Positions 1 to 4,764 of a stretch of DNA of 32,000 nt are shown here, in pieces (the stretch's first letter is position 1; each line of letters begins with the position of its first letter). Location of the stretch: NCBI GenBank assembly GCA_001029695.1, contig CP011211.1:1-32000 (forward strand). Direction: 5' to 3'. The stretch is from Candidatus Saccharimonadota bacterium (GTDB taxonomy: Bacteria > Patescibacteriota > Saccharimonadia > Saccharimonadales > Saccharimonadaceae). Below the pieces are notes generated by a model. It ran no database searches. It was given only the letters and a program-made list of their open reading frames with translations, and was not told the DNA's origin. Made by a program: the position numbers and the translations under genes.

Positions 1-309
1 TATACCCCCCTAGGGGTATTTGCGTCAAGCAGATTAAATATATAAAAAGAAGACTCCTGTTTTCTCGCAGAGCGTGAAACATGAGCCTTCCTATGGCTGA
101 TTATATAGGAAACTGACTATTTTTTAACTCCTTACTTCACGTACTGATCAATTATACGGGTCGAGCAACGGCGTCAAGGTAGTATTCACTCCTGAAAATA
201 ATTGTTTTCTTTTCTTTTATTGCTATTTTCAAGCGGAATCTCCACCTGTGACACCATTGCCATGCGGCCCCGTCAGATAACTCCGTTACGTAAAGTAAAG
301 GAGGAAGAC

Positions 310-597
310 ATGACTTACGCAGCAACTATGCAATCATCAACGGTAACCGCCGAGTATAACGGGTGGTGTAATCGAGAGACATGGGTGGTGAACCTGTGGC
401 TTACAAACGAAGAGTGCTACTACCACGAACTTTGCAGTATCATCAAGAACTTCGACACTACAGACGAACAAGCCGAGGAAATCGAGCAATACGTTCGGTT
501 TATCGCCGATAGCGAACAGATAGGTATCGCTGGCGACTTACTCGCCACTTCTCTCGGCAGAGTCAGCTGGCACGAAATAGCCGTGTGCAATCAATAG
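310..597 (+). CDS. Hypothetical small element protein (95 aa)
   Basis: ATG at 310 is preceded by AAGGAGG (298-304). The longer start at 202 has no SD. The protein has a Trp-rich motif, NRETWVVNLWLTNEE. No family was recognised with confidence. Confidence 0.5.
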   Translation: MTYAATMQSSTVTAEYNGWCNRETWVVNLWLTNEECYYHELCSIIKNFDTTDEQAEEIEQYVRFIADSEQIGIAGDLLATSLGRVSWHEIAVCNQ

Positions 598-602
598 CAC
601 AT

Positions 603-632
603 CGTCCTAGGGCATGACGTAAAACTGCCCTA
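603..632 (+). repeat. Element stem-loop motif, copy 1 (stem 608-614/626-632, loop TGACGTAAAAC)
   Basis: Sequence cGTCCTAGGGCATGACGTAAAACTGCCCTA lies 6 nt after the stop of the 310..597 ORF. It forms a 7-bp perfect stem. Confidence 0.7.
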
Positions 633-860
633 AAAGCCATGCCGTACGGAACTATGATGTCTATTCTGCAAACAATAGTGCTGGCATGGAAGAGGCTTCC
701 TCTCTCTGTCTCTTCATTATACGGGTGAACGAACCGCATCAAGGTCGTTCGTCCCATTGGTAAACGTCAAGGGGCGCTCCACCTTGACCCAGTTCGTTGC
801 AGCCTCGTACCTCTCGGACAGAGAGGCAGGAAGACCTCTCGTAACTCGAAGGGAGGTCTT

Positions 861-1196
861 ATGGACACCAAGCAAGTACAAAACGAAACAGCAGCACAGA
901 TCGCTGCGCTCAATGACGCTGCGAGAAGCAATGCGTTTAACTATATGGCGACGCGAGGTGTTATGTCGCTCGATGAAGTGACGATCAGTGATATCTTTGT
1001 CGCGGTACAAGATTTTAGTAAGTTTACGGAAGACAACGACCCATACGGTGAACATGATTTTGGCTCATTCAAGATACATGGGCATAAGATCTTCTGGAAG
1101 ATAGACTATTACGACCAGCAGTTGAAATACGGGAGTGACCCGCTCGATCCGAATTGTCGGCGAGTTGTCACTATCATGTTACCCGAGGAGTATTAG
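861..1196 (+). CDS. DUF3768-family protein (111 aa)
   Basis: GGGAGG SD at 851-856. Motifs DNDPYGEHDFGSF, FWKIDYYD and the C-terminal RVVTIMLPEEY match my recollection of the DUF3768 family, which is common on plasmids and ICEs. Confidence 0.7.
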   Translation: MDTKQVQNETAAQIAALNDAARSNAFNYMATRGVMSLDEVTISDIFVAVQDFSKFTEDNDPYGEHDFGSFKIHGHKIFWKIDYYDQQLKYGSDPLDPNCRRVVTIMLPEEY

Positions 1197-1210
1197 CTCC
1201 TCGGTTTTTT
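1183..1210 (+). terminator. Rho-independent terminator after the DUF3768 gene
   Basis: Perfect 8-bp stem CCGAGGAG/CTCCTCGG with a 6-nt loop that contains the TAG stop, followed by T6 (1205-1210). Confidence 0.75.
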
Positions 1211-2751: not shown

Positions 2752-2777
2752 AATCATAAAAAACTCTCCGAAAAGGG

Positions 2778-2834
2778 TTGAACTACAACTATATCTATAG
2801 TAAACTATAGATATAAGTATAGTATTAATACTTA
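2778..2834 (+). promoter_or_regulatory. Promoter (TTGAAC-17-TAAACT) overlapped by nested palindromic operators
   Basis: -35 at 2778-2783 and -10 at 2801-2806. An 11-bp perfect inverted repeat TATATCTATAG/CTATAGATATA sits at 2790-2800/2805-2815. A 12-nt palindrome AGTATTAATACT sits at 2821-2832, flanked by TAAGTAT/ATACTTA. All of this lies directly upstream of GGAGG at 2836-2840. Confidence 0.5.
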
Positions 2835-2848
2835 CGGAGGGCAATATC

Positions 2849-3034
2849 ATGGGTAGAAGAAAAGGCTCAAAGAACAAAAAACCAACTATAGACCCGCTAC
2901 ATACGGTAATGACGTCCGAGGAACGACTAGACTTCCTTGCTCGTCTCATAGTCGAACACATAGAAGAAGACCAGACAAGCGGCCGCAAACTGCTTGAAAG
3001 GATTGGAGTACAAGATGAACAAGAACTTGCCTAG
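2849..3034 (+). CDS. Small basic/acidic protein (61 aa), candidate regulator or recombination directionality factor
   Basis: GGAGG lies 8 nt upstream. The N-terminus GRRKGSKNKK is basic. The ORF overlaps the recombinase start by 20 nt, which suggests translational coupling. Confidence 0.45.
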   Translation: MGRRKGSKNKKPTIDPLHTVMTSEERLDFLARLIVEHIEEDQTSGRKLLERIGVQDEQELA

Positions 3035-4730
3035 ACTCTATGCCGTTGGTGCTATTCGTGTCTCAACCGAAAAACAAGGCCGCGATGGTGACTCGCCAGA
3101 TGCCCAGAAAGAGCAGATTGATCGCTACGGCGACTCTCGCAATATGCCTATCCGTAAATATTTTGCATTCCTAGAATCAGGCTCAAAAGTCAAACAGCCG
3201 ATGCAAGAAGCCATCGACTACTGTAAAGACCCGAAGAACCAGATTAAATACTTCATCATCAAGTCAATCGACCGCTTTACCCGTGGCGGCTCGCGTATTT
3301 ATGAAGACCTCAAAGAGCAGCTTGATGCCTGCGGCGTTACCCTCGTTGATGTATATGGCGTCATTAGTGCCGAAAAGGTTAATACTCTCGACCACCTTGG
3401 CTTTACCTACAAATGGAGCGAGTACTCGCCGAGCAAGAAAACCGAGATACTAGAAGCCGAACGCGCTAAGGACGAATTACGTGACATTATGAGTCGCATG
3501 ATTGGCGCAGAAATACGCTATACGCAAGTGGGCTACTGGATGCGGCAGCCGCCTTTTGGCTTTATGAGCGAAAAGGTCGAAACGCGTCACGGCAAGCGCA
3601 CCATACTCATGCCTCATCCTGATGAAGCGCCACTTATACGCAAGATGTACGAACTAAAAGCATTGGGTACGATGAGCGATCGCCAAATCGTCAATAAGAT
3701 GAATGAACTCGGCTTTAGAACGCGTAAAACCTACGTTAGAGATACTAGTGATCGCTCGAAGATTATCGGCACAAAAGGCGGTAATCTGTTAGAAATGACC
3801 AAAATTAACCGATATCTAGAAAATCCTATCTATGCTGGCGTCGTTAAAGAGAAATGGACGAGCGACAAACCTGTTAATGCAGCCTTTGATGGCTTAGTAT
3901 CATTTGAGCTATACAATCAAGCCAACCGAGGCCGAGTTGCTTTACATGAGAGTGCAGACGGTGATATCGAATATGAGAAAGTCCGACCAGATGAGAAAGC
4001 TAAGAAAGGTGTTCATAATGATGAGTTTGCCTACCGTCGCTTCATTGCTTGCCCTACATGCCACAATCCGCTGCTTGGTAGTGCGTCGCGCGGCAAGATG
4101 GGTAAATACTACCCTGCATATCACTGTAGCAACCACGGTCACTACTACCGAATACCAAAGCAAGAGTTTGAGACGACTATTGCTGAGTTCGTCAAAAGCA
4201 TTTCCGTTAGCACCGAAAAGCTCGACGCGCTCACAGATGCCGTCATGACAGTATGGGAGAAAAAGCATGAGAGCGTCAAAGAGGATGCAAAAGCCATTCA
4301 GAAGCGCATAGACAGCCTTGTACAGCAGAAATATGCCATCGTCGATAAGATTAAGATCGTTAGCTCGGTAACAGCTATTGAAATGCTTGAGGCCGACCTA
4401 GTAAAGACTGACGAGGAAATCGCTAAGCTTGAGGTAAGTAAAAAAACTGCCAGTCGAGACGCCGAAGCGGTCGATATTCATAAGATTGTCGCCTACATCA
4501 AATATTTTATGGAACACCTGCACGAACTGCTAATTGACCTCTGCAATCCAAGCCTCAAAGCCCAATATTTCAGCGTTCTATTCGACAAAGTGCCAACCTA
4601 CGAAGAAATAAAAGCTGGAACTCAAAAAGAGTCCGTATTACCAGGGGTAAACGAACTCTTTTCAGCACTGAATGTGCAATCTTCTCTTTTGGTGATCCCG
4701 CGGAGAATCGAACTCCGATTGCCAGGATGA
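3015..4730 (+). CDS. Large serine recombinase (integrase), 571 aa
   Basis: ATG at 3015 with GGAG 6 nt upstream (the track start at 2994 is TTG). It has the resolvase catalytic motif YAVGAIRVSTEKQ, a recombinase domain, the zinc ribbon CPTCHNPL...YHCSNHGHY and a C-terminal coiled-coil. The last 41 nt overlap tRNA-Glu in antisense. Confidence 0.9.
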   Translation: MNKNLPRLYAVGAIRVSTEKQGRDGDSPDAQKEQIDRYGDSRNMPIRKYFAFLESGSKVKQPMQEAIDYCKDPKNQIKYFIIKSIDRFTRGGSRIYEDLKEQLDACGVTLVDVYGVISAEKVNTLDHLGFTYKWSEYSPSKKTEILEAERAKDELRDIMSRMIGAEIRYTQVGYWMRQPPFGFMSEKVETRHGKRTILMPHPDEAPLIRKMYELKALGTMSDRQIVNKMNELGFRTRKTYVRDTSDRSKIIGTKGGNLLEMTKINRYLENPIYAGVVKEKWTSDKPVNAAFDGLVSFELYNQANRGRVALHESADGDIEYEKVRPDEKAKKGVHNDEFAYRRFIACPTCHNPLLGSASRGKMGKYYPAYHCSNHGHYYRIPKQEFETTIAEFVKSISVSTEKLDALTDAVMTVWEKKHESVKEDAKAIQKRIDSLVQQKYAIVDKIKIVSSVTAIEMLEADLVKTDEEIAKLEVSKKTASRDAEAVDIHKIVAYIKYFMEHLHELLIDLCNPSLKAQYFSVLFDKVPTYEEIKAGTQKESVLPGVNELFSALNVQSSLLVIPRRIELRLPG

Positions 4731-4764
4731 GAACCTGGTGTCCTAACCGTTAGACGACGGGACC
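4690..4764 (-). tRNA. tRNA-Glu (anticodon CTC), CCA encoded
   Basis: The reverse complement reads GGTCCCGTCGTCTAACGGTTAGGACACCAGGTTCTCATCCTGGCAATCGGAGTTCGATTCTCCGCGGGATCACCA. The acceptor stem has 7 bp with one G-U pair. The anticodon stem is CCAGG/CCTGG with loop TTCTCAT. The T-loop is GTTCGATTC. Confidence 0.85.

Follow-up and report, generated by a model that had tools for sequence, protein, structure and literature searches.

An island at the 3' end of tRNA-Glu in Saccharibacteria whose large serine recombinase gene reads into the tRNA and would exchange its C-terminus on integration

Features of the locus

The stretch of DNA analysed here (the window) comprises 32,000 nt of a Candidatus Saccharimonadota genome, positions 1-32,000 of contig CP011211.1, from groundwater sample ERZ909595 (source metagenome SRR1658466). 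Its left end is occupied by part of a mobile island that abuts a tRNA-Glu(CUC) gene, and the large serine recombinase (LSR) gene of the island continues into the antisense strand of that tRNA. The host of the window is referred to as host A and the host of the related contig L015 as host B. The features at the junction are the following.

4690-4764, minus strand: intact tRNA-Glu(CUC) gene, the integration target (B arm); ARAGORN and Rfam RF00005, 59.3 bits
3015 (ATG)-4730, plus strand: LSR gene in its integrated form, 571 amino acids (aa); Pfam, PHROG and structure match of a homologue
4696-4730, plus strand: host-encoded end of the LSR gene, 11 codons (IPRRIELRLPG) and the stop TGA at 4728-4730
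4690-4695, no strand: core TGGTGA common to element and target, corresponding to the tRNA 3'-terminal TCACCA and to LSR codons (L)-V-(I/T/S)
1-4695, plus strand: tRNA-proximal 4.7 kb of the integrated island, ~100% identical to host-B contig L015 up to 4689

An earlier note, made from the letters of this DNA, had described the LSR open reading frame (ORF, 3015-4730) as reading 41 nt into the tRNA antisense and had assigned its C-terminus to the tRNA. ARAGORN, Rfam and the ORF translation agree on this point: the final 41 nt (4690-4730) are the antisense of the 3' part of the tRNA, and the protein ends in ...SSLL-VIPRRIELRLPG*. The stop codon (TGA, 4728-4730) is the antisense of U35-C36-A37 in the anticodon loop, and the overlap is therefore exactly 41 nt in 39 of 80 tRNA-Glu loci. 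An alternative TTG start at 2994 would give a protein of 578 aa.

Junction and crossover point

The response regulator gene beside the tRNA (4803-5177) has an identical protein sequence on many contigs, and the tRNA-Glu gene is identical across all host-A contigs, whatever sequence comes next. Near-identical host-A contigs diverge exactly past ...GGGATCACCA, and at least five different occupants are found there: the window-type element (in some copies with its recombinase split or truncated), two elements with 578-aa recombinases ~50% identical to that of the window, an element with a 556-aa recombinase (~24% identical), and an array without a recombinase. Three LSR lineages (571, 578 and 556 aa; 24-50% identical) thus use one tRNA, and none of them stops ahead of the junction; two have a common frame in the tRNA antisense (...VIPRRIELRLPG), and the third uses a different one (...FGDPAENRTPIARMRTWCPNR).

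The element side is constant through ...TCTTCTCTTT and is followed by TGGTGA and then by host-specific sequence. In different Saccharibacteria hosts one and the same element end meets five tRNA-Glu alleles, always directly behind TGGTGA, the post-core sequence being TCCCGCGGAGAATCGAACTCCG in the window, CCCTACCGGGAATCGAACCCGG in host B and one of three more alleles in metagenome matches. The last 11 residues of the LSR vary with the tRNA allele: one element has VIPRRIELRLPG in host A and VTLPGIEPGLPP* in host B. Where elements stand in tandem, the distal end of one (...GGTGGGTCACCA; also ...GGGTCACCA) directly abuts the next. The distal end lacks the A of the tRNA's GGGATCACCA, which places the exchange within the last six bases of the tRNA. 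From these comparisons the crossover must lie within window positions 4690-4695, to which the 2-3 T's ahead of them may have to be added. The two junctions are identical over 6-9 bp, (TTT)TGGTGA, a length in keeping with an LSR and not with the identity block of a tyrosine-type enzyme, and the crossover dinucleotide presumably falls somewhere in this stretch.

The earlier note had offered two scenarios for this arrangement. A replacement tRNA 3' end carried by the element holds trivially for the six shared bases and fails beyond them, where the sequence follows the host; no second copy of the tRNA 3' half is present within the window, even with 3 mismatches allowed. A crossover inside the 3' coding region of the recombinase, the second scenario, has the support of the data in two ways: the sequence after TGGTGA follows the host allele, and the distal ends encode an in-frame tail.

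The C-terminal tail at the distal end

The distal end of the window-type island starts with TGGTGA and encodes, in frame after L-V, the peptide SHVDITWNSFLPYLIKLTDRLEDLGFRYVDNKVIVLKEETDDK*, a conserved, putatively helical tail of 45 residues. The tail is found in 53 protein clusters, behind many unrelated upstream sequences, and a similar peptide is encoded by the distal ends of the elements with ~24% identical recombinases; the shared motif is W-N-x-L-x3-[LI][IV]. Nucleotide differences between pairs of tails, which are not independent of one another, are distributed over the three codon positions as 7, 2 and 16; 3, 1 and 8; 3, 1 and 7; and 6, 2 and 12. Such a third-position bias is what coding sequence shows, and the biased stretch of ~100 nt far exceeds a recombinase half-site. 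A Pfam search with the tails alone gave no family.

Five of the 120 closest homologues of the recombinase are ~590 aa long and end in W-N-x-L-x3-[LI][IV] tails rather than in tRNA antisense. Wherever DNA or a gene map could be retrieved, these longer forms (~592 aa) are tandem arrangements, in which the tail comes from the distal end of the neighbour.

Distribution of the layout in Patescibacteria

One genome per species was scanned, 334 relatives were found, and the best 80 loci were analysed. These 80 are nearly all from Saccharibacteria, with a few from WWE3, Roizmanbacteria and Microgenomates, and the course of the LSR ORF at the tRNA is distributed among them as follows.

48 of 80 loci: stop codon inside the antisense tRNA
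13 of 80 loci: ORF runs through the whole antisense tRNA
4 of 80 loci: tRNA-like tail at a contig end
7 of 80 loci: ORF runs off the contig
8 of 80 loci: remaining loci, including non-tRNA tails

The ORF enters the antisense tRNA in 61 of the 80 loci, and 104 of the 120 closest homologues have tRNA-antisense tails; with such frequencies the overlap is not due to chance. The target tRNAs are mainly Glu(UUC) or Glu(CUC), and also Leu, Gln, Arg, Asn, Ser and Lys. The family numbers more than 1,600 proteins, with 334 relatives found in the species-level genomes. Judged from these sequences, the layout is family-wide and widespread in Patescibacteria. One homologue, P0112 from Ca. Saccharibacteria RAAC3_TM7_1, is labelled 'NUDIX hydrolase' in NCBI. 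Recombinases with tRNA tails also occur in bins labelled Gammaproteobacteria, Pedobacter, Pseudomonadales and Eisenbacteria (L075, L076, L083, L086, L088, L091, L099); these are probably mis-binned contigs.

The recombinase

The window enzyme is a large serine recombinase by domains and fold. It carries an N-terminal Resolvase domain (PF00239, E=7e-10, residues 10-113) and a Recombinase domain (PF07508, E=2e-8), and matches the PHROG 95 integrase (4e-44). Catalytic R15 and S17 are invariant in an alignment of 24 recombinase sequences; C346, C349, H370 and C371 form a conserved Cys/His cluster, and PF13408 is detected on some homologues. An AlphaFold2 model of the 592-aa homologue form contains long helices at 400-485, and its top Foldseek matches are full-length LSR-att complexes of Bxb1 and PhiC31 (E 1e-17 to 1e-11). 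By sequence, the window LSR is remote from all solved structures: a single-sequence search against the PDB matched no solved LSR, and a profile search matched only the N-terminal domain of TP901-1 integrase (3e-4). The ORF in the window is intact with the catalytic residues present, and the enzyme is presumably active, as the spread of the element to at least five hosts indirectly suggests.

Extent, cargo and spread of the island

The data support an integrated mobile element that has its large serine recombinase beside tRNA-Glu, and the size of this element was measured by a sliding identity comparison of the host-A contig with host-B contig L015. Identity is ~100% from the end of the host-A contig to window position 4689, and at the tRNA it falls sharply, to 55-72%. 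At least 10 kb has thus been transferred as a unit, and the island does not end at window position 1. When the contig is followed leftward, as the earlier note had advised, it continues for 5.4 kb with genes for CsoR, a copper ATPase, an NAD-binding protein, DUF305 and DUF3105, but stops inside the island before the distal end. In host B the distal end lies at L015:734 with TGGTGA, equivalent to position 739 of L013; rightward of this point the two contigs share 99.4% identity, and leftward they are unrelated. The whole island of this relative measures 13.7 kb and carries, besides the window genes, Mrr-like, HTH, cytochrome b5, DUF305/DUF3105 and copper-resistance genes. No tyrosine recombinase is present among the called genes of the complete L015 island. 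No conjugation genes were found inside the island, and in L014 a TrbC/TrbL cluster is situated immediately beyond it. The small plasmid-like unit proposed in the earlier note is not supported, given the at least 5.4 kb co-transferred further left, the 13.7-kb island of the relative and the lack of any circular form in the scans described below.

Within the otherwise ~100% identical stretch there are two mosaic patches, window 3122-4100 in the LSR gene (89-94%) and L016 1250-2250. The host-C version of the element replaces window 411-1521. The elements are mosaics. Another Saccharibacteria host from the same groundwater sample (L128), whose tRNA-Glu allele differs, carries a window-type element that is ~80-84% identical over shared modules. 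At least five host lineages, differing in their tRNA alleles, have near-identical copies, and transfer is therefore recent. Base composition of the element region is uniform with the rest of the window; mobility is compatible with this, since the Saccharibacteria among which the elements circulate are similar in G+C.

The remaining genes of the island in the window are listed below. The DUF3768-like and replication-relaxation-like cargo named in the earlier note is confirmed by Pfam.

310-597, plus strand: DUF7249 gene (Pfam PF23907, E=2e-11), called from 262; ATG at 310 with an AAGGAGG Shine-Dalgarno (SD) sequence
861-1196, plus strand: DUF3768 gene (Pfam PF12599, E=1.3e-30)
1259-1441, plus strand: 60-aa ORF, called in every element-bearing contig, without family match
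1990-2751, plus strand: Replication-relaxation (Replic_Relax) gene (Pfam PF13814, E=7e-8)
2849-3034, plus strand: gene for a 61-aa basic protein, overlapping the LSR start and conserved in both related LSR lineages

The Replic_Relax gene is always located two genes upstream of the LSR, and the DUF7249 gene is conserved 2-2.6 kb upstream of it in many species. The 61-aa protein has the motif M-G/S-R-R/P-K-G-S-K-N-K followed by a helix (EERLEFIARLIVE) in both related LSR lineages; Pfam and PHROG searches gave no match, and it is a candidate accessory or directionality factor. A 42-nt near-palindrome at window 2782-2823 (20-nt arms, ACTACAACTATATCTATAGT / ACTATAGATATAAGTATAGT, 85% complementary, 2-nt spacer) sits in the gap between Replic_Relax and the 61-aa ORF and could be an operator or origin. 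A 19-nt motif (GGCATGACGTAAAACTGCC and variants, 74-89% alike) occurs at window 611-629, 1218-1236 and 1456-1474, its copies lying 14-22 nt past the stop codons of three consecutive element genes.

The DUF7249 gene holds a pseudo-core TGGTGA at window 386-391 (codons W-V-V). On three independent contigs (L132 at 3485, L133 and L134) the N-terminus of DUF7249 is joined exactly at TGGTGA to the island distal-end tail, in the order CsoR...DUF7249 N-terminus, TGGTGA, tail-77aa... These joins look like a circle or tandem junction, or off-target recombination at the pseudo-core. A separate small element reaching from the internal TGGTGA (386-391) to 4695 was considered and rejected: the DUF7249 domain spans the site, and most homologues are without the hexamer.

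Strong SD sequences had been taken as a hint of foreign origin of the element genes. The argument is weak: an SD-like motif is present in four of six element genes, and many host genes have a TATAAT box shortly before the ATG instead. In these host genes, which are without SD, a TATAAT or TATACT box lies 6-12 nt ahead of the ATG (window 7813-7833, 9303-9323, 15149-15169, 18227-18247, 21379-21399 and 26948-26968). The proximity of the boxes to the ATG suggests leaderless or very short-leader mRNAs in the host.

Arrays, recombinase-less cassettes and the empty site

Cassettes without a recombinase are found at the tRNA site on four contigs (L111 6521-9173, L112 6521-10183, L123 6596-11572 and L005 10489-19057). 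Their cargo includes an ABC transporter, HxlR/ADH/Fic genes, and sortase and glycosyltransferases. The distal end of each is a tail-coding arm plus TCACCA, and at its proximal start each has a terminator-like hairpin that resembles the native tRNA-downstream sequence of another host. In a lineage with a third tRNA allele, the tRNA is followed by a window-type element, by a 5-kb recombinase-less cassette or by other sequence.

Several contigs were considered as examples of the unoccupied site. L005 was rejected, being a recombinase-less remnant array with four distal-end-like copies and a 96-nt direct repeat, as were L123 and L111/L112, each of which holds a cassette ending in a tail-coding arm plus TCACCA. 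The sequence past the 5-kb cassette of L123 (TAGAAAAATCCTCAGG..., with a terminator hairpin) matches the sequence directly downstream of the tRNA in L121/L122 at 78% identity over 82 nt. The response regulator of L121/L122 is the protein that NCBI and UniRef name from Ca. Mycosynbacter amalyticus. L121 is the best candidate for an unoccupied site.

Split, truncated or uncalled recombinase genes were also noted at the tRNA site, at 10448-12059 of L009/L012 (split), 10448-11689 of L010 (truncated) and 10425-12161 of L004. The published Saccharibacteria genomes concerned are GCA_001790385.1, GCA_003508055.1 and GCA_015999845.1. Decay after integration seems to be frequent.

Interpretation and alternatives

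The junction anatomy, the co-variation of tail and tRNA allele, the in-frame, coding-like distal tails and the spread across hosts and species are established. On this basis window 1-4695 is read, at a probability of about 0.8, as the tRNA-proximal part of an island of at least 10 kb that its LSR inserted at the tRNA-Glu 3' end; on this reading the LSR gene contains the crossover, and integration therefore swaps the C-terminus. The simplest reading of the sequences is that the gene is continuous across the core when excised and that integration splits off its last 45 codons. In the proposed course of events, the attachment core TGGTGA would lie inside the recombinase gene (codons 559-561), and after excision the gene would continue into the opposite element end, to ~603 aa, ending in a conserved amphipathic helix (...LVSHVDITWNSFLPYLIKLTDRLEDLGF...). 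The expected junction of the excised form would be the near end, TGGTGA and GCCATGTGG..., and the reconstructed attP would consist of window 4650-4695 and, directly after it, GCCATGTGGATATTACCTGG... For the window copy, the distal end is expected to read TGGTGA with a ...VSHVDITWNSF... tail behind it and to have at most ~13 nt of tRNA-like sequence. Exchange with the identical TCACCA that ends the tRNA would restore the tRNA exactly and strand the 45 terminal codons at the opposite end of the island, while the integrated ORF would read the tRNA antisense to the anticodon-loop TGA and yield the 571-aa form. New elements would enter at the same tRNA-proximal site and build tandem arrays, in which an older recombinase would regain a native-type tail from the far end of its neighbour.

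Several observations weigh against insertion by the LSR with an exchange of its C-terminus. The distal end of the window copy is off its contig, and a distal end is known only from relatives. No excised circle or attP junction was found among IMG/VR viral contigs, where no relatives were detected, and a metagenome scan for the near end plus core returned only integrated or tandem junctions; the circular form that the earlier note had suggested looking for was thus not recovered in either scan. The reconstructed attP and attB show no dyad symmetry beyond that expected by chance from scanning many centres. The empty tRNA-Glu locus, also suggested as a check, has a candidate in L121, but this contig comes from a different species with flanks ~70% identical. 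Several copies at the site are pseudogenes, and many copies are therefore decaying. The tail is predicted as a helix in the AlphaFold2 model of the 592-aa form with low confidence (pLDDT 46-66).

The strongest competitor accepts the anatomy as described and differs in its meaning: the attachment site may merely overlap the end of the gene through genome compaction, the swap being without function and both forms alike. This reading is less likely than not. The tRNA-encoded tails vary freely with the allele, and even in frame, and any substitute for the native tail is thus tolerated. There is little conservation in the linker around the core, and the low model confidence of the helix points the same way. 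Against it, LSR lineages with only ~24% identity to one another have a conserved distal tail, its third-position bias extends over a length that a half-site would not account for, and the tail is kept even on recombinase-less cassettes.

If the swap does have a function, it may alter activity or directionality, by analogy with IntP/IntX of Mx8. A bolder extension makes the swap a built-in switch, in which only the excised or neighbour-restored form, with the helix, would be competent for one direction of recombination, and makes the tRNA-Glu locus a cassette array whose recombinase-less cassettes would be moved in trans by the recombinases of their neighbours. This extension is offered tentatively and is on balance unlikely.

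It is improbable that the window copy is a fixed, immobile remnant in which the tRNA overlap is a fossil and the ORF stays open by chance or domestication. The split and truncated recombinase genes at the same site in related genomes, the lack of an excised form in the IMG/VR and metagenome scans and the uniform base composition would suit such a remnant. The window ORF, however, is intact with its catalytic residues, and near-identical copies sit beside different tRNA alleles in at least five host lineages, with one window-type element (L128) in the same sample. A classical tRNA-targeting island, carrying a long replacement tRNA 3' half and integrated by another enzyme, is scarcely credible: the intact tRNA and the use of its 3' end do resemble a tyrosine-integrase island, and some distal ends are tRNA-like for up to 13 nt (GGTAGGGTCACCA in L005), but sequence past the 6-nt core follows the host and not the element, the window holds no second tRNA fragment and the called genes of the L015 island include no tyrosine recombinase.

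Comparison with known systems

Insertion by the LSR into the tRNA gene, with an exchange of the C-terminus, can be compared with several known systems. Phage-type LSRs (phiC31, Bxb1, TP901-1, A118/LI) share with the window family the catalytic domain, the recombinase domain, the Cys-rich zinc-ribbon region and the long coiled coil, and apparently also a very short identity between the recombining sites. The window family differs in targeting the 3' terminus of a tRNA, which is restored, and in having the core inside its own ORF; its elements are not phages, and IMG/VR holds no relatives.

In Mx8, the phage named in the earlier note, which has a tyrosine integrase, attP lies within the integrase coding sequence, and integration gives a new 3' end (PMC6070905, PMC4383910) and changed properties (PMC6070905). 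Mx8 intP and the window LSR are alike in having the attachment core inside the integrase ORF and the C-terminus replaced. Mx8 differs in its tyrosine recombinase, with a different chemistry, and is a single phage, whereas the window arrangement is family-wide, takes its new tail from tRNA antisense and its stop from the anticodon loop.

According to the Islander paper, only tyrosine-family integrases are known to target tRNA genes, and serine integrases are not (PMC4383910). Islander/TIGER islands resemble the window island in integration at tRNA 3' ends, restoration of the gene, tandem accumulation, and resistance and defence cargo. They differ in that the sole recombinase of the window island is of the serine family, with no tyrosine integrase, and in that its displaced tRNA fragment is only 6 nt (TCACCA), with up to 13 tRNA-like nt in some remnants. 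The Islander paper also cites Mx8 and SSV as integrases extending across attP, the fusellovirus SSV-type integrase gene being partitioned by integration into a tRNA gene (PMC4383910). SSV-type integrases differ from the window LSR in being of the tyrosine family and from archaeal viruses. In SSV1 the split is near the N-terminus, as against 45 codons from the end in the window LSR.

Tycheposons of Prochlorococcus are likewise cargo-carrying elements that pile up beside tRNA genes; 27 of 937 carry a large serine recombinase, the elements use overwhelmingly tyrosine recombinases, and in the available part of the preprint neither an attP within the gene nor read-through into the tRNA is reported (bioRxiv 10.1101/2020.12.28.424599). 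For serine-recombinase elements, reviews describe protein genes as the places of insertion (PMC5704250). A literature search for serine recombinases targeting tRNA genes, or in Saccharibacteria, returned nothing relevant, with incomplete coverage that leaves an earlier description possible; within that coverage, the combination of a serine integrase, a tRNA target and attP in the gene, as read from these sequences, appears to be without earlier description for this enzyme class.

Significance

LSRs are leading tools of genome engineering, and a natural family that targets tRNA genes widens their known target range. The window-family enzymes restore the tRNA with only six shared bases, and island finders that seek displaced tRNA fragments would miss these islands because the fragment is only 6 nt. 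A gene split at the crossover would be a simple way for integrated and excised enzymes to differ, and bears on how directionality could arise without, or alongside, a separate factor. Should the switch and the cassette array prove true, they would amount to an integron-like system built from a serine recombinase and a tRNA gene. In Saccharibacteria and other Patescibacteria, which have tiny genomes and few genetic tools, the tRNA-Glu locus appears to be one of the main places where copper-resistance and defence genes enter, and it could serve as a natural landing pad.

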